From an uncultured delta proteobacterium (lineage in GTDB: Bacteria; Desulfobacterota; Desulfobacteria; Desulfobacterales; B30-G6), in the NCBI GenBank assembly GCA_963823335.1, contig CAWGLD010000007.1, positions 288,001-352,000 on the forward strand: DNA of 64,000 bases. The letters run 5' to 3'. The notes under the pieces are model-generated. The model did not search any database, was not told the DNA's origin, and worked only from the letters and a program-made list of their open reading frames with translations. Both the position numbers and the translations under genes were made by a program. This document shows, piece by piece, positions 15,373 through 52,037 of the stretch. Numbering within the stretch: position 1 is the stretch's first letter; each line of letters starts with the position of its first letter.

Positions 15373-15447
15373 TGGCTGGGGCGGGAGGATTCGAACCTCC
15401 GAATGCAGGAACCAAAGTCCTGTGTCTTACCGCTTGACGACGCCCCA
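15373..15447 (-). tRNA. tRNA-Gln(UUG)
   Basis: Minus strand TGGGGCGTCGTCAAGCGGTAAGACACAGGAC-TTTGGT-TCCTGCATTCGGAGGTTCGAATCCTCCCGCCCCAGCCA; anticodon TTG; usual ispE-tRNA-prs synteny. Confidence 0.97.
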
Positions 15448-16797: not shown

Positions 16798-16832
16798 TTT
16801 TTTCTCCTATAGAGCCCTGTGGGGGTCACGTT

Positions 16833-16903
16833 GCCTTCGGCTGTCATTTGCCTTTCAGGCGTCATTTACACTTCGTGTGACATTACGCCCTTCGGGCGTG
16901 ATT
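16833..16903. repeat. array of 4 mini-hairpins (period ~18 nt)
   Basis: GCC-TTC-GGC, GCCT-TTC-AGGC, ACAC-TTC-GTGT, ACGCCC-TTC-GGGCGT separated by GTCATT/GACATT linkers. Confidence 0.8.
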
Positions 16904-16976
16904 TATTGCCGCTTATAGCTGATAGTTTTCAGCTGTAAACAAACCTAAAACGTAACACATAAAACCTAAAACCTCA

Positions 16977-22405: not shown

Positions 22406-22653
22406 GGTTGTGCACCCTCTGTTGTGTTATTTCAAAGCTCCCTGGCCTGTTATTGATCGAGATCGATCCACGACACAGAACCCATCACTTATCGCTGCTT
22501 CCTTCCGGACCTGACGAGGTTCGTGAGTGTCTGTTGCGTAGCGTCCGATCAAACAAAACCTGGGAATTCCAAAAATACCCTAAAGAGGGAGTTCAGCCCC
22601 GCATAAGCGGATTTCGGGACGAGGGCACCGCTAGCTCCCCGCCTAGCACAACC
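22406..22653 (-). ncRNA. ffs: signal recognition particle RNA, large (Alu-domain) type
   Basis: Minus strand has helix-8 TCAGGTCCGGAAGGAAGCAGC and a Bacillus-scRNA-like 5' GTGCTAGGCGGGGAGCTAGCGGTGCCC; 5' GGTTGTGC pairs with 3' GCACAACC; promoter TTGATA-17-TATATT. Confidence 0.93.
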
Positions 22654-38806: not shown

Positions 38807-40717
38807 ATGACAACCCCGTACGATGCAGTGTTTAAAAAATCCATTGAAGACCCGAACGCGTTCTGGGCCGAAGCCGCTGAAGACTGTCACTGGTATAAAA
38901 AATGGGACAAGGTCCTCGACGACACCCACAAACCATTCTACCGCTGGTTTGCGGGCGGAGAAATCAATACCTGTTACAATGCCCTGGATTTTCACGTAGA
39001 GCAGGGCAGAGGGGACCAGTATGCCTTGATATACGACAGTCCTGTCACCAATACCGTTAAAAAATATACCTACAGCGAACTCCGGGACGACGTTGCCAAA
39101 TTTGCCGGTGTTCTGGCAGATCTGGATGTGCAAAAAGGGGATCGGGTCCTGATCTATATGCCCATGATCGCCGAAGCAGCCATTTCCATGCTGGCCTGTG
39201 CACGTATCGGGGCTGTTCACTCGGTCGTATTTGGTGGGTTTGCACCAAACGAACTGGCAACCCGCATCAATGATGCCAAGCCAAAGGTCATTGTTTCAGC
39301 GTCCTGCGGTATCGAAGTTTCCCGCGTCATCCCCTATAAACCCCTGCTGGATGCGGCCATTAACATGGCAAAAAGTGATTCCAAGCCCCAAAATTGTGTC
39401 ATTCTGCAGCGACCCATGGAAACAGCCGGTATGGTAGCGGGACGAGACCTGGACTGGCATGAGGCCGTGACGGCCGCAACACCCCACGACTGTGTTCCGG
39501 TGGCAGCTACAGACCCCCTCTATATTCTGTACACATCAGGTACGACGGGTGAGCCCAAAGGTGTTGTGCGGGACAACGGCGGTCATGTGGTGGCGCTGAA
39601 GTGGAGCATGAAGAATATCTACAACATCGATGCCGGTGATGTCTATTGGGCGGCTTCCGATGTAGGATGGGTGGTGGGTCACTCCTATATCATTTATGCC
39701 CCGCTCTTTAAAGGTTGCACCACGATTCTGTTCGAAGGCAAACCGGTTGGCACACCGGATGCGGGTGTTTTCTGGCGCGTCATATCAGACCATGGCGTCA
39801 AGACCATGTTTACCGCACCTACGGCTTTCCGTGCCATCAAACGCGAAGATCCAACCGCCGCGCTTACCAAGAAGTATGATCTCTCGAAATTCAAAACACT
39901 ATTTTTGGCGGGTGAACGCCTCGATCCGGACACACTCCACTGGGCGGAAAAGCATCTGGGAATTCCGGTAATCGATCACTGGTGGCAGACGGAAACCGGT
40001 TGGGCCATATGTGCCAACCCCATGGGCATCCACCCCTTTCCCGTCAAGGAAGGCTCACCCACAAAGCCGGCCCCGGGATGGGATGTCCAGGTCGTAGATG
40101 CCGAGAACCGTCAGGTCAAAGATGGCGAAATCGGTGCACTGGTTGTCAAACTACCGCTTCCCCCGGGCAGCCTGCCGACTCTCTGGAAAAAGGATGAGCG
40201 ATATATCAGCTCCTATCTGGAAGAATTTCCAGGGTATTATAAAACCGCCGACGCCGGTTTTATCGATGCCGACGGGTATGTTTTCGTCATGTCACGAACC
40301 GACGACATCATCAATGTCGCCGGCCATCGTCTTTCAACGGGTGCCATGGAGGAAATCCTGGCAGACCATCCGGATGTAGCTGAATGTGCCGTCCTGGGAG
40401 TGGCGGACGAACTCAAGGGACAGGTCCCGGTAGGTTTTCTGGTTCTGAATGCGGGCGTCGAAAGAGATCATGAAGAGATCATCAAAGAGGTTATCCAGTC
40501 TGTGAGAGATCGTATTGGTCCGGTAGCTTCGTTCAAGAAAGCCACGGTTGTCAAACGACTGCCCAAAACGCGGTCCGGCAAAATATTACGGGGTACGATC
40601 CAGAAGATTGCCGACAACAAGGAATACAAGGTCCCGGCAACCATCGATGATCCGACGATTCTGGGGGAAATGGAAGATGCACTGGTGGGCATCGGCTACG
40701 CCAAGGCCCGTAAATAA
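38807..40717 (+). CDS. prpE: propionyl-/acetyl-CoA synthetase
   Basis: YTSGTTGEPKG, VVRDNGG, WWQTETG, VAGHRLS, PKTRSGK; AGGAGG SD. Confidence 0.88.
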   Translation: MTTPYDAVFKKSIEDPNAFWAEAAEDCHWYKKWDKVLDDTHKPFYRWFAGGEINTCYNALDFHVEQGRGDQYALIYDSPVTNTVKKYTYSELRDDVAKFAGVLADLDVQKGDRVLIYMPMIAEAAISMLACARIGAVHSVVFGGFAPNELATRINDAKPKVIVSASCGIEVSRVIPYKPLLDAAINMAKSDSKPQNCVILQRPMETAGMVAGRDLDWHEAVTAATPHDCVPVAATDPLYILYTSGTTGEPKGVVRDNGGHVVALKWSMKNIYNIDAGDVYWAASDVGWVVGHSYIIYAPLFKGCTTILFEGKPVGTPDAGVFWRVISDHGVKTMFTAPTAFRAIKREDPTAALTKKYDLSKFKTLFLAGERLDPDTLHWAEKHLGIPVIDHWWQTETGWAICANPMGIHPFPVKEGSPTKPAPGWDVQVVDAENRQVKDGEIGALVVKLPLPPGSLPTLWKKDERYISSYLEEFPGYYKTADAGFIDADGYVFVMSRTDDIINVAGHRLSTGAMEEILADHPDVAECAVLGVADELKGQVPVGFLVLNAGVERDHEEIIKEVIQSVRDRIGPVASFKKATVVKRLPKTRSGKILRGTIQKIADNKEYKVPATIDDPTILGEMEDALVGIGYAKARK

Positions 40718-40719
40718 AA

Positions 40720-41014
40720 AAAGGGTTCGAGGGGTAAGGGGTCAAGGGTTCGAGTGACACGAAGTAGAGCGTCAGCGCTCAATGCTTAAGAATTATAAAG
40801 AGATAAATGTTCGGAAAAATCGTATAAACAACGATGATATTCGGTTAGTTGGGCTAGGCAGAGAAAGAAAGGCGTCAGAAATTGAGAGAGGAGATCGGAG
40901 ATGTAGAGAGACTACTAAAAACGATGATCAACTATCTGGAAAACAGACACTTGAATCCTTGAATCCTTGAATCCTGGACTCCTTGTACCCTTTCTCCCAA
41001 TTGGGAGAAGAAGC
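40720..41014 (+). mobile_element. four-helix cassette copy 2 (degenerate, left end missing)
   Basis: ATGCTTAAGAATTATAAAGAG at 40782, eroded C-terminal coding segment, GAATCCTT repeats, TTCTCCCAATTGGGAGAAGAAGC right end. Confidence 0.75.
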
Positions 41015-41020
41015 TTATTT

Positions 41021-47104: not shown

Positions 47105-47298
47105 GGATCATCTCCCAAAGAGTTGATCCAAATTAAGGATTCAAGGATTCCAGGGGCCCAGGGGTCGAGTGAGATGAAGTGAGGTACCAGCTAAATGCTT
47201 AAGAATTATAAAGAGTTAAAGGTCTGGAAAACAAACACTTGAATCCTTGAATCCTGGACTCCTTGTACCCTTTCTCCCAACTTATTGGGAGAAGAACC
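47105..47298 (+). mobile_element. four-helix cassette copy 3 (both ends intact, gene almost fully deleted)
   Basis: Ends GGATCATCTCCCAA / TTGGGAGAAGAACC; flanks GACAATAT / AACAATAT; MLKNYKELKVW fused to the ENKHLNP-coding tail. Confidence 0.85.
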
Positions 47299-47326
47299 AA
47301 CAATATAAACCATCAGGAGGCATTCT

Positions 47327-48097: not shown

Positions 48098-49942
48098 ATG
48101 TCTGAACAGGTACATCCGGGGTCAAAGCAATCCCATGGCCAGCCGATCGCCCTGCTACTCATATGCCTGGCGATACTGGTCGGTGCCATGGCGCTGGCGT
48201 CTGCCGTACAAAGAGATTTCGGGAATGTCCATATCTCGAATGTGACTTTCCGTAACTTCAACGGCATAGCGGTCCGGGCAAAGCTGCTTGAGCCCGGAAA
48301 AAATCCTGGCCGACAGACATTTCCGGGAGTCGTCTACATCCACGGCTACCAGAACAATCGGGAAACAGGTGATGCATACTGCATCGAGCTGGCAAGAAGG
48401 GGCTTTGTTGTCCTGAATATCGATGCCATCGGCAGGGGCAACTCCGGGGTCCCCAACGACCCTTCCGCCCCCGACTTTGACAGCAGCTACGGTGGTCTTT
48501 CAGCGTTGAATTATCTTCGAGCCCTCCCTGGTGTCAATCCCCAGGCTCTCGGTATGATGGGGCACAGTCTGGGCGCGGAAATGGCCTACCAGGTTGCCAT
48601 GCAAAACCCATCGGTAAAAGCCCTTGTCATCACCGGATTCGCCTATACAGCTGCTGCGAATACATCCGTTCCCAGGAACATGCTGATGGTTATCGGTAAA
48701 TGGGACGAATTTCGTGATCGCATGACCCGTACCCGGGATATCGAAAAAGAGTGGATGAAGACCGACGAGACACGCAGGGTCATCTCCCATCCAAACCCGC
48801 AAACAGGTGTGACCTATGGTGAGTTCGAAGATGGTACCGCCCGCCGTGTGGTGGTACCGAACGCGATTCACATTCAGGAATCCCATAGTCGCCTGGCCAT
48901 CACAGAGTCCCTGATATGGATGAAGCAGGCCCTGTCTCCACCCGCAACCTTCTGGATCGACCCTGATCGCCAGATATGGCCTGTCAAGGAATGGGCGACG
49001 CTGATAGCCATGCTAGCCGGCCTGTGGTCGCTGCTCCCCCTGGGGTCCCTACTGGTCCGGATGTCGTTTTTCAGCGACCTCCAGGCGGCACCGTCAACCC
49101 GTTATGCCTGCAAAAGAAACACCTGCCTTGGATACGCCTTTGTCAACGGCTTGCTCATGTGGCTTTATTTGCCCCTTATTTTCGTTCTTTTCGGTATTCA
49201 TATTTATATCGTCCGTATCGACAAAGCCTTTCCCATGATGATGGTGAATGCCATCGTCTGGTGGTTTCTGTGGGTCAACGTAATTGGATTTGTCCTTTTT
49301 CGAAGATGGTTTAAGAAGAATCAAGTAGTTGAAAACCTGTCCCTTGCCGACCTGGGTGTTTCCTGGAACCCGGACCGGTTTTATCTCGATGGACGGTGTC
49401 TGGCTAAAACCGCCCTGCTGGCTTTTTTTCTGTTCGGGTTTGCCTGTCTGGGTGAACACATCCTGGAACAAATTTTTATCGTCGACTACCGTTTTATCTT
49501 CCCCTTTGCCAGTGATCTGACACCCTATCGCGTTAAGATGGCGCTTTTGTACTTCCCGTTTCTCCTGCTGGGTTTTCTTCAGACCGGTGTTTTCCTTCAC
49601 GGCCAAATGAGACGTCCGCAAAGATCCACACCCATTGCAACCTTTTTGCACGGGTCCTTCACAAATATCATGATCATGGTTCTTCCTTTGCTGCTATTTG
49701 CGGCTGTACAATACGTCCCCCTGTTCCTCAACGGTTTCATTCCCCTGGTGGGTCCGGGCGGTATGTTCGTTTCATTTGTCATCAACCTGTTGCATATCAT
49801 CGGGGTACTCATTGTGGTGATACCCCTTTCCACCTGGCTGTTTCAGCTTACCGGGAAAATCTATCTCGGCGCCATGACCAGCGCGGCACTGGTATCCTGG
49901 ATGTTTGCATCGTCCCAGGTGATAGCACCGATACCGATATAG
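48098..49942 (+). CDS. membrane-bound alpha/beta hydrolase
   Basis: YIHGY, GHSLG nucleophile elbow, multi-TM C-terminal half. Confidence 0.8.
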   Translation: MSEQVHPGSKQSHGQPIALLLICLAILVGAMALASAVQRDFGNVHISNVTFRNFNGIAVRAKLLEPGKNPGRQTFPGVVYIHGYQNNRETGDAYCIELARRGFVVLNIDAIGRGNSGVPNDPSAPDFDSSYGGLSALNYLRALPGVNPQALGMMGHSLGAEMAYQVAMQNPSVKALVITGFAYTAAANTSVPRNMLMVIGKWDEFRDRMTRTRDIEKEWMKTDETRRVISHPNPQTGVTYGEFEDGTARRVVVPNAIHIQESHSRLAITESLIWMKQALSPPATFWIDPDRQIWPVKEWATLIAMLAGLWSLLPLGSLLVRMSFFSDLQAAPSTRYACKRNTCLGYAFVNGLLMWLYLPLIFVLFGIHIYIVRIDKAFPMMMVNAIVWWFLWVNVIGFVLFRRWFKKNQVVENLSLADLGVSWNPDRFYLDGRCLAKTALLAFFLFGFACLGEHILEQIFIVDYRFIFPFASDLTPYRVKMALLYFPFLLLGFLQTGVFLHGQMRRPQRSTPIATFLHGSFTNIMIMVLPLLLFAAVQYVPLFLNGFIPLVGPGGMFVSFVINLLHIIGVLIVVIPLSTWLFQLTGKIYLGAMTSAALVSWMFASSQVIAPIPI

Positions 49943-50067
49943 CCTTCGGCTGTCATTAGCGCTATGCGCGATATTTGCCCTTACGGGCGTCATTAGCGCT
50001 ATGCGCGTCATTAGTCCTGCGGACGTTATTTACCCTTTCGGGTGTAATTTATCCTGCGGATGACATT
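49941..50067. repeat. array of 7 mini-hairpins (period 18-19 nt)
   Basis: AGCC-TTC-GGCT, GCGC-TAT-GCGC, GCCC-TTAC-GGGC, GCGC-TAT-GCGC, GTCC-TGC-GGAC, ACCC-TTTC-GGGT, ATCC-TGC-GGAT, each followed by a GTCATT-like linker. Confidence 0.85.
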
Positions 50068-50095
50068 TGCCTTTCGAACTCTCGATCCTTGCTTT

Positions 50096-50177
50096 CCCCC
50101 TCCACCCCTCCAAACCTCTGACCCTCCAACCCTGCCTTCCCCCCTCCAACCCTCCAAAACTCAAACCCTCCAACCCT
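50096..50177. repeat. degenerate 8-mer tandem repeat (CCCTCCAA)n
   Basis: About 9 imperfect units just after the hairpin array. Confidence 0.7.
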
Positions 50178-50291
50178 TTTCTTAATTGACACGTCTTTTA
50201 GATTTCACTATACTCTCCCAGAATTAATGAAAGTCGGTTTTCTCAGTTTTTCTGCAATCTCTACAAGATGTTATCAACAAAGGAGCGTATT

Positions 50292-52037
50292 ATGGCGGAC
50301 AGACCCTGGCACGGAAAAAAATGGCCCAAAGGTGTACCCTTGGAAATTTCCGGGTACGACAACCCCCTGTACAATATTCTGGACGAGTCGGCGGAAAAAT
50401 ATCCGAATAATGTATATACGATCTTTAACGATGCGACACGAACGTATGCCCAGGTAAAAGACACCGCCGACCGGATCGCCAATTTCCTGGTATCCAAGGG
50501 TATCAAGAAGGGTGACCGGGTCGCCATCTTTCTCCCCAACCTACCGCATTATCCGGCCATTTTTTTTGGTATCCTCAAAGCCGGTGCTGTCTGTGTAACC
50601 TGCAACCCTGTTTACACTGCCAGTGAACTGAATTACCAGTTGGGTGATGCAGGCGCCAAAATGGTCTTCTGCATGGATCATCCCCTCTTCTACCCCACAA
50701 CCGTCAAGGCCATCAAAGACACCAATGTGGAAAACGTGGTTGTCTGCAGCGTCAAATCTTATCTGCCCTGGATCAAAGGCTTTCTGGGGGGTCTGCTGGG
50801 TAAAATTCCCAAAGCGGAGAGCTATCAGACCGGTCATCTCTTTTTTGACGATGTGGTGGCATCTGCCCAACCGCAGCCACCTGTGATCGATATCGATCCC
50901 ATGAATGATCTTGCCTTGATCATCTATACCGGGGGAACAACCGGTCGCCCCAAAGGCGCCGCTCTCACCCACGCCAATTTTTATCACAATGTTCTGGCCC
51001 TGGGGGAATGGGGCCTGCTTCCCCATGAGCCCAATGGTGCGCCGGAAAAAATCCGCCACGGTGGCTTTCACACCTATCTTGGCGTATTGCCGTGGTATCA
51101 CAGCTTCGGCCTGACCGTGGCCATGCTTTCCGCCTGCGGCTCAGGCAGCAAACTGATCTGTATTCCAGACCCTCGTGCCGGCGATCCCCCATTTACAGAC
51201 GTCCTCAAGGCCGTCCAAAAATATCGACCCACATTGATGCCGGCCGTGCCTACGATTTTTGTGGCCTTTACCAATCATGCACTGCTGGATCAATTTGACC
51301 TGACATCCCTCATGGGTTGTTTTTCGGGTGGTGCACCACTTCCGCCCGAAGTCTGCAAACAGTTCGAGGATAAAACAGGTTCGATTATCTTCGAGGGTTA
51401 CGGGCTCAGTGAAACATCCCCTGTGGTCACAGCAAATCCCACCAACCAAAAGGATCGTAAAATCGGCTCCATTGGGTTTCCCGTACCCAGCACCGATGTG
51501 AAGATCGTGGATCTCGACACCGGTTTGAAGGAACTCCCCCAGGGTGAAGATGGAGAGATTGCCATCAATGGGCCACAGGTCATGCAGGGTTACTGGAACA
51601 AACCCGATGCAAATAAAGAGGTTTTCAGAGAACTCGATGGCAAGCGCTATTTTCTCACCGGTGACATCGGCCATATTGATGACGATGGATACATACTGAT
51701 CACCGACCGTAAGAAAGACCTGATCATCGTCGGGGGATTCAACGTTTATCCCAGAGAGGTTGAAGACACACTCTTTACCCATCCCAAGGTCGCCCTGGTC
51801 GCCGTTGTGGGTGTTCCGGATGCCAAGAGTGGTGAAATTGTAAAGGCCTACATACAACTGAAACCCGGAGAAACCGCAACCGAAGAAGAGATCACAGCCT
51901 TTTGCAAGGAAAACATGGCCGGATACAAACGCCCCCGCGTTATCGAGTTCCGGAATGAGGTGCCGGTGTCGAATGTCGGTAAGGTCCTGCGGCGGGTTCT
52001 GAGGGATGAAGAAATAGAGAAACAGAAAAACCAATGA
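50292..52037 (+). CDS. fadD: long-chain fatty acid--CoA ligase
   Basis: [38 protein letters not shown]. Confidence 0.9.

Follow-up and report, generated by a model that had tools for sequence, protein, structure and literature searches.

The Gut-1 RNA motif (RF01706) has been an orphan since 2010. In this motif, short hairpins whose stems vary are separated by a constant linker of its own, ~7 nucleotides long (nt; GUGAAAUU or GUGAUAUU in the seed), and the seed includes some 4-bp stems with UUC loops. The motif was listed as 'Human gut only', and the passages that describe it state neither a function nor a gene partner (Weinberg et al., 2010, PMC2864571). Another described design is that of the 23S rRNA intervening sequences that bear an open reading frame (ORF), in which a gene of the S23p/PF05635 family lies between inverted arms that form one long stem. 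RNase III cuts and excises these intervening sequences at their arms. We analysed a stretch of 64,000 nt, called the window throughout, from an uncultured delta proteobacterium of the order Desulfobacterales (GenBank assembly GCA_963823335.1, contig CAWGLD010000007.1, positions 288,001 to 352,000 of the forward strand), in which positions 49941-50067 (+ strand) hold an array of seven mini-hairpins joined by GTCATT-like linkers. The design of such arrays was previously known only from an orphan motif; they form a new lineage of it, firmly tied to one clade of four-helix-bundle proteins. The complete cassette consists of a GTCATT-linked array, a gene of ~120 codons for a PF05635/TIGR02436 four-helix-bundle protein (the '23S rRNA intervening-sequence protein' family) and an inverted, AATGAC-linked array. 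The array in the window is probably a solo arm of the 5' type, without a gene, of the repeat family of which this cassette is the full form.

Two other groups of small hairpins invite comparison. Repetitive extragenic palindromic (REP) units are imperfect palindromes of ~20-40 nt with a conserved GTAG head tetranucleotide. Like the units described here, REP units and bacterial interspersed mosaic elements (BIME), which are associated with REP-associated tyrosine transposases (RAYT), are numerous, small, intergenic and palindromic, and are sometimes clustered. Mini-hairpin DNA of the types d(GCGNAGC) and d(GCGNNAGC) has GNA or GNNA loops closed by a C-G pair. The relevant sections of a recent review place single mini-hairpins at priming and promoter sites of phages and plasmids, describe their resistance to exonucleases, and point out that standard folding parameters miss their stability (Kimoto and Hirao, 2026, PMC13037366).

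Covarying hairpins in the local array and its family

Each of the seven units at 49941-50067 (+) contains a perfect 4-bp stem, a loop of 3-4 nt and a GTCATT-like linker. In order along the + strand, the hairpins are AGCC-TTC-GGCT (49941-49951, linker GTCATT), GCGC-TAT-GCGC (49959-49969, linker GATATT), GCCC-TTAC-GGGC (49977-49988, linker GTCATT), GCGC-TAT-GCGC again (49996-50006, linker GTCATT), GTCC-TGC-GGAC (50014-50024, linker GTTATT), ACCC-TTTC-GGGT (50032-50043, linker GTAATT) and ATCC-TGC-GGAT (50051-50061, linker GACATT at 50062-50067). All 28 of the 28 stem pairs are Watson-Crick and six different stems occur, so that the seven units, their complementarity and their position are as an earlier note on this DNA, made from the sequence alone, had reported. 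The linkers follow the pattern G(T/A)(C/T/A)ATT, and on the + strand have the form found in the 5' arm of the cassette (GTCATT). Units of 18 and 19 nt, each made of an 11-12-nt hairpin and a 6-7-nt linker, follow one another in mixed order. The GCGC-TAT unit occurs twice, which looks like a two-unit duplication inside the array. Tandem Repeats Finder detected the array in part (49952-50014, period 18).

On the minus strand, the loops read GAA, ATA, GTAA, ATA, GCA, GAAA and GCA, with a C-G closing pair throughout, again in agreement with the note. Five of the seven units have G-N-A or G-N-N-A loops with C-G closure, as in mini-hairpin DNA, and the two ATA loops do not conform to GNA; the mini-hairpins of the review are single, whereas those found here form tandem arrays. 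Two candidate identities were rejected. The array is not coding, its 18- and 19-nt units being mixed and no ORF spanning it. Nor is it a CRISPR array, as the note had also held, the constant part being the 6-7-nt linker and the variable part the 11-12-nt palindrome; no CRISPR repeat family was found in the window at gathering score, cas genes not having been searched for.

The predicted fold energy of the local array by itself was modest, with z = -2.35 for RNA of the + strand and z = -2.56 for DNA of the - strand, and in each case 2 of 200 shuffled sequences folded as well. The family as a whole was searched for with a unit definition that was blind to the hairpins, namely chains of at least four strict linkers spaced 17-20 nt apart. 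There were 35 such chains (135 units) in the 4.37-Mb source genome, and 0 and 0 in two genomes simulated with a first-order Markov model. This strict definition replaced a looser one whose background was high (98 real chains and 32 simulated). When the 18-nt units were placed in a fixed register, 98 of 115 had a perfect 4-bp stem and the other 17 a single mismatch. Among the 86 distinct units, 96% of cells were paired, compared to a mean of 70% and a maximum of 75% in 500 partner shuffles. Two or three types of Watson-Crick pair occur at each of three stem positions out of four; the counts were C-G 43, G-C 25 and A-T 17 at one position and C-G 52, T-A 21 and G-C 10 at another. A reversed-pattern control gave no match in 30 of 31 genomes and one match in the remaining genome.

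Chance is thus excluded as the origin of the array family, since the real chains are absent from simulated genomes and the covariation of the stems exceeds that of every shuffle. The note had argued that simple slippage would not give such arrays, and had named similar arrays in control sequences as an outcome that would speak against a structured element; the chain counts and the pairing bear out the former, and the latter did not occur. Its proposal that the array is selected for structure stands in part. Because the stems covary, either structure or a process that makes palindromes must constrain them. Template-switch correction of quasi-palindromes is a mutational route that could also give perfect stems, and perfect stems therefore need not mean selection.

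A strict scan of the source genome, requiring a perfect stem and a linker with at most one mismatch, found 616 units, and groups of two or more units made up 50 clusters. Of these clusters, four were A/T-only junk, which left 46 arrays of 2-7 units, all of them intergenic by crude ORF calls. A terminal module, ATTnATTGy, ends 37 of the 46 arrays and is usually followed by AGCT-rich words; the local array is among the nine without it. C-rich octamer words follow 22 of the 46 arrays, AACCTAA-type heptamers follow 12, and small reverse units such as AATGAC-GCGAAGC follow 11. Five arrays lie within 17 kb at C8:94204-110654 of the source genome (G000), and two of these, at 96045 (+) and 101258 (-), share nearly the same unit order, which suggests a local inverted duplication.

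The scan of relatives that the note had recommended showed that the family is not confined to one genome. A two-linker pattern was present in all nine genomes of the same genus (3 to 95 matches) and in all five other genomes of the family, and in one of 16 from other families of the order. A wider scan for two units, with one genome per species, gave at least 125 stretches, and most of those listed came from metagenome-assembled genomes (MAGs) of the Desulfobacterales type. Of the 28 loci that were read, six in one Calditrichia MAG had the same design, as did 12 in MAGs labelled Bacteroidales, Rikenellaceae, Lentimicrobiaceae or Saprospiraceae, with GTCATT or GTAATT linkers; of the others, nine had no relation to the design and were for the most part coding serine-aspartate repeats, and one was too incomplete for a judgement. 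The hairpin-and-linker design hence recurs in three phyla, in sediment and aquatic Desulfobacterales, Bacteroidales and Calditrichia, unlike Gut-1, which is listed for the human gut only.

The constant short linker and the variable, covarying stems of Gut-1 are both found in the arrays, so that the statement in the note that no named class is known for them did not hold, although Gut-1 scores below threshold here. When a cassette arm of this family was compared with Rfam, Gut-1 scored best (L161:1373-1444, 27.6 bits), with the whole model aligned and three hairpins in register. The gathering threshold is 50 bits; membership in Gut-1 by score was accordingly rejected, and a match at threshold to an Rfam family, the other outcome that the note had named as contrary, was not obtained. 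GATATT, the word shared in this comparison, is one linker variant of the present arrays, the main linker being different (GTCATT or GACATT). There was no Gut-1 match at E <= 10 in positions 49000-51000 of the window, and the Gut-1 model gave three matches with E > 2.6 in the whole genome, none inside an array. An E-value scan of 49000-51000 with Rfam found nothing relevant, and a scan of the window at gathering level found only a bacterial large signal recognition particle (SRP) RNA at 22408-22651 (-) and a tRNA at 15376-15447 (-).

The four-helix-bundle gene cassette

The source genome has 20 PF05635 matches, most of them flanked by words other than the GTCATT type. At C1:744710-745430, hairpin arms were present on both sides of a decayed PF05635 gene (match at 744972-745094) that contains stops and frameshifts, with GTAATT/GATATT-linked mini-hairpins upstream and their reverse complement downstream. 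This locus and its counterparts in related genomes sit between aminotransferase-like and glyoxalase-like genes. Seven of the eight counterparts that were read (G002, G004, G007, G009, G012, G013 and G015) had an intact ORF of 118-149 amino acids together with both arms, and the eighth (G005) was truncated. The unit number and the stems of the arms varied among these relatives. The predicted RNA fold of the G004 cassette encloses the gene between paired arms (z = -3.42). An intact PF05635 gene of the sister clade is present in the source genome at C1:756937, with arm words that differ from the GTCATT type.

Among 44 four-helix-bundle proteins placed in a maximum-likelihood tree, those with such arms, nine in number, formed one clade (support 85/97), to which two Bacteroidales genes belong, and arms were found in none of the other 35; an automatic rule flagged seven of the nine, and the other two were judged by eye. 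The proteins of the clade share the C-terminal motif G-(V/I)-K-L-N-N-Y-I-K-S-I-G. They match TIGR02436 and, weakly, the solved structure 2gsc, their closest solved relative, which was deposited with five chains. Proteins similar to the clade at E <= 1e-20 fall into at least 7,940 clusters. Relatives with a name came from MAGs of Bacteroidales, Thermodesulfobacteriota and Cloacimonadota, and from the cultured Roseimarinus sediminis (64% identity). Carriage by phages was rejected, no relatives of the clade protein having been found among viral contigs.

We also read 30 PF05635 loci in five genomes of other phyla that contain GTCATT arrays. Two of these, both from Bacteroidales, had GTCATT and AATGAC arms, and one Calditrichia locus had hairpin arms of the GATATT type. 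The latter (L189, G031:C56:101964-102284) carries a four-helix-bundle gene of a neighbouring branch, and its arms combine GATATT/GATGTT linkers with larger imperfect palindromes. Words that bear hairpins are therefore not confined to the GTCATT clade.

A metagenome scan with the clade alignment confirmed at least 468 relatives. Arms were counted around the best 80 of these, 70 of which have at least 150 nt on each side. At 62 of the 70 loci there were three or more linkers upstream and three or more reverse-complement linkers downstream, and 69 of the 70 had a linker arm on at least one side, against 11 of 70 on the control strand. The note had proposed a search for co-occurrence with four-helix genes, and the outcome was positive, both here and in the nine of nine proteins of the clade. 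Many of the metagenome cassettes carry AATGAC with hairpins of the GCGAAGC type downstream, and in many 3' arms the bare GCGAAGC unit is itself repeated. Units of 14-16 nt numbered 99 in the 3' arms and 20 in the 5' arms. Gene and arms have thus been passed on as a pair in a single protein clade, in Desulfobacterales and in Bacteroidales alike.

The cassettes share with the ORF-bearing intervening sequences of 23S rRNA the protein family (PF05635, TIGR02436) and the placement of a gene between inverted arms, the pairing of the cassette arms being predicted. They differ in lying between protein-coding genes, whereas intervening sequences lie inside 23S rRNA, and in having arms made of linkers and mini-hairpins in place of one long stem. 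A gene of this type between inverted arrays of the same word is a feature of the family and not of the local array, which has neither a PF05635-type gene nor a partner arm.

Other word-array cassettes of the source genome have the same layout, with a word array, a four-helix-bundle gene and an inverted word array. What distinguishes the GTCATT clade is that its word carries a self-complementary insert, which adds a second level of structure. The window itself also holds, at 47105-47300 and 40715-41015, two remnants of a four-helix-bundle cassette family other than that of the GTCATT clade. These have AAGGATTC/AAGGGGTC words to one side and CTTGAATC words to the other, and their outer ends read GGATCATCTCC.../...GGGAGAAGA. 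Both match the flanks of intact genes at C2:127769 and C1:412444, and the remnant at 47105-47300 appears to be without a gene. In the literature searched we found no published description of this arrangement of gene and arrays, and nothing that links intervening-sequence or four-helix-bundle proteins to tandem, heptamer or short tandemly repeated repetitive (STRR) repeats; in the sections consulted, one paper lists such genes only in tables (PMC5524665).

Orientation, turnover and setting of the arrays

Gene-bearing cassettes and gene-less arrays are oriented by the neighbouring genes and not by GC skew. Among the arrays of the source genome that lie between co-directional genes, as judged from crude ORF calls, the sense strand read AATGAC in 28 and GTCATT in 4 (binomial p = 1.9e-5), the local array being one of the four. 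The bias was also seen in arrays without adjacent C-rich words (15:3), and for arrays in the usual orientation the median distance from the array end to the next start codon is 58 nt. The orientation was unrelated to GC skew, and there was hence no replication-strand bias; the counts were 14:14 among the arrays between co-directional genes that lie opposite to the GTCATT strand. Metagenome cassettes behaved alike, being co-directional with both neighbours. Of 50 loci, the outer flank on the upstream side had an open frame exclusively on the + strand in 26 and exclusively on the - strand in 2, and on the downstream side the corresponding numbers were 28 and 1. The polarity of the arrays is tied to transcription, which favours the transcript or the non-template strand as the place where they fold.

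The loops give a further indication of the strand that would fold. Genome-wide, the commonest loops on the GTCATT strand were TTC (64), TGC (32), TAC (13), TTT (9) and TATC (6), and in the metagenome 3' arms they were GAA (51) and GCA (24). The rule that emerges on the AATGAC strand, with G first, A last and C-G closure, points to that strand, and most loops of the genome follow it, as they do in mini-hairpin DNA. Tetraloops of RNA follow the rule GNRA. The commonest tetraloop of the arrays, GATA, fits the DNA rule GNNA and not that of RNA. The sequence GCGAAGC was found 473 times in the genome and expected 533 times at equal base use, and is not over-represented.

Unit number at a fixed site changes between closely related genomes, which answers the note's suggestion that polymorphism be looked for. 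The local site has seven units in this genome, four in G003, four in G004 and two in G006, and the first unit, on the stop codon, is identical in all four. G008 and G009 have only AGCT words at this position, and G015 has none. The versions in G003, G004 and G006 retain the terminal module ATTnATTGy and AGCT words. At the second array of the window (16830-16925, + strand), five genomes have 4, 5, 2, at least 6 and at least 10 units. In the flanks of the local array, contigs from other samples agree with the window but depart from it inside the array, and one DNA contig is identical across the array. At fixed sites, units are thus rapidly gained, lost and rearranged. Because of these changes in unit number and this divergence inside the array, we consider that the arrays behave like minisatellites, with exchange between the constant linkers.

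The second array has four units and the terminal module ATTTATTGCCGCTTATAGCTGATAG, with AAACCTA-type heptamers continuing to 16974. It precedes the start of a minus-strand gene by ~30 nt, and its orientation is the typical one, the sense strand reading AATGAC. An additional conserved insert of ~250 nt was seen at this site in G004 (L286, C17:~344020-344290) and in G007 (L285, C1:~153260-153530). The insert lies between the AGCT words and the heptamer words, and is absent from G000, G002 and G003.

The local array begins on a gene. A 614-amino-acid protein of the alpha/beta-hydrolase fold is encoded at 48098..49942 (+), and its stop codon TAG (49940-49942) overlaps stem 1 and supplies its first two bases. 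Downstream of the seventh unit, we read a degenerate eighth unit (GCCTTTCGAAC, 50069-50079) and a junction at 50068..50091 (+) in which the terminal module is absent. An array of C-rich octamer words of the CCCTCCAA type follows at 50092..50177 (+), with 10.5 copies at period 8 and 2.0 copies of a 44-nt block at period 44. Octamer words of this type form the 3' arm of another four-helix-bundle cassette family in the genome (cassette at C7:178049). On the opposite strand of 50092-50177, GGG runs lie 5-8 nt apart and could form G-quadruplexes. A sigma-70-like promoter, TTGACA-17-TATACT, matching at 11 of 12 positions, is found at 50186..50214 (+), ahead of the gene for an AMP-binding enzyme of the acyl-CoA synthetase type at 50268..52037 (+). 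The promoter is conserved in all seven genomes compared, including G008, G009 and G015, where the array is lacking; it belongs to the host and lies outside the repeat.

The transcript evidence consists of assembled contigs, which show neither strand nor RNA ends, and the RNA libraries may contain DNA. No contig of RNA library X6 covers 49905-50105, a gap that proves nothing. One contig of library X7 (record 28) runs from the hydrolase gene to 49944 and then continues for at least 255 letters in a different version of the array.

Explanations for the arrays

The most probable explanation of the local array is that it is a gene-less solo 5'-type arm, in the rarer orientation, from which the gene and the 3' arm would have been lost. 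The arrays in general may be selfish, minisatellite-like passengers between co-directional genes, which would grow and shrink by slippage or by recombination between the constant linkers. A complete cassette would sit between co-directional genes and be read through with them, and its mini-hairpins would form where the nucleic acid is single-stranded, in the transcript or else in the non-template strand of the DNA. As in rRNA intervening sequences, the two arms may also pair with each other around the gene. Exposed between the hairpins, the constant linker would be a likely recognition site for the cassette's own protein. Gene-less arrays could be leftovers after gene loss, or copies that spread independently. 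The folding, processing and protein binding of the arrays are all predictions from sequence. We expect the local array to have no dedicated function, because its gene and 3' arm are gone and the only cognate gene of the genome is broken; at most, it would provide small hairpins at the 3' end of the hydrolase transcript.

Several observations weigh against this explanation. Only 20 of the 70 metagenome loci have two or more strict hairpin units, and many cassettes have in the 5' arm plain 10-11-nt GTCATTnnnn words without hairpins, and hairpins are therefore not obligatory for the cassette. In the relatives that share the aminotransferase/glyoxalase locus, the arms are complementary only across ~12 inner bases and are not collinear beyond them, and the 'closed stem' around the gene rests on the single predicted fold from G004. 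The only gene of the cognate clade in the source genome is broken, yet at least 46 well-paired arrays persist, which argues against a strict need for that protein. The local array has expanded to seven units, compared to 2-4 in relatives, so that the word 'remnant' fits its parts and not its dynamics. The orientation counts depend on the crude ORF calls already mentioned. Finally, single mismatches provide a weak test of the strand: in the source genome, G·T would form on the AATGAC strand in eight cases and on the other strand in one, and in the metagenome arms the ratios were 3:1 and 4:5.

An alternative is that the arrays act in trans, as dispersed sites that titrate a four-helix-bundle protein, possibly a paralogue, or position it on single-stranded DNA or RNA, and that they are functional without a neighbouring gene. 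The restriction of the linker word to one clade of the tree and its frequency around the metagenome genes are in keeping with this, and the 20 PF05635 matches of the genome, including the intact sister-clade gene at C1:756937, could supply a protein. Avd-type relatives are pentamers, and an oligomer, as suggested by the five chains of 2gsc, would suit a periodic array. However, co-inheritance of a single element can explain the association, the cognate gene is broken in the source genome, the sister gene has different arm words, and binding itself is conjecture. We regard action in trans as unlikely.

Alternatively, the array could be an RNA element that serves the host, in the manner of REP, its hairpins stabilising or terminating the 3' end of the hydrolase mRNA and the C-rich words aiding Rho-dependent termination before the next promoter. 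The position of the array, which begins on the stop codon and has a separate promoter downstream, is suggestive, as is the X7 contig that runs from the gene into a variant array, and mini-hairpins are described as resistant to exonucleases in the review cited above (Kimoto and Hirao, 2026, PMC13037366). However, that contig is subject to the limits given for all of them. The array is also not an intrinsic terminator, for which a G+C-rich stem of 5 bp or more and then a T run would be required; the stems have just 4 bp, and one unit of seven (unit 6) fits a loose terminator pattern. Moreover, three relatives (G008, G009 and G015) have no array at the site, and 28 of the 32 arrays between co-directional genes have the opposite orientation and lie near the start of the next gene, not at 3' ends. 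A host-serving role is thus quite unlikely.

The earlier note had suggested a substrate of an HUH nuclease, with RAYT among the genes to look for. The dispersed, intergenic and palindromic nature of the units and the presence of eight Y1_Tnp matches in the genome would allow a REP/BIME-type element handled by RAYT or another HUH (Y1) enzyme, but none of the eight lies within 7.2 kb of any of the 46 arrays, and GTCATT/AATGAC hexamers within 1.5 kb of the Y1 genes were not clearly enriched (0-4 seen, ~1.6 expected). The units, being 11-12-nt hairpins with a 6-7-nt linker, also do not have the REP palindrome with its GTAG head; they are far smaller, tandem, in one orientation and constantly linked, and have a different partner gene. 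We consider such an element very improbable, and the suggestion was not upheld. A plain slippage microsatellite or a chance arrangement without structural constraint, for which the quick changes in unit number and the apparent two-unit duplication might be taken to speak, can be dismissed almost entirely in view of the chains that simulated genomes lack, the mixed pair types at three of four stem positions, the degree of pairing and the recurrence of the design in three phyla.

A broader proposal can also be made, which we put forward tentatively and with more doubt than confidence. The arrays would be the cis partner of PF05635 proteins, an oligomer of which would recognise the single-stranded linker between extra-stable mini-hairpins, in non-template DNA or in the transcript. 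Together they would form a widespread self-propagating system that moves between phyla, of which Gut-1, the ORFs of rRNA intervening sequences and short word repeats would be different faces, and gene-less arrays would be its footprints, still able to bind in trans.

In Bacteroidota, Desulfobacterota and other phyla, few small genes of unknown function are as common as those for four-helix-bundle proteins of the PF05635 family. One clade of these proteins travels with one linker word in three phyla, and this word can carry covarying mini-hairpins of the DNA type. A protein of the clade, together with oligonucleotides made of the linker and the hairpin, is therefore a concrete pair that can be tested. 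The pairing of gene and arms offers an explanation for many odd intergenic repeats in environmental genomes, and for annotation, arrays of this kind account for hypervariable intergenic regions, breaks in assemblies and repeats that touch stop codons.

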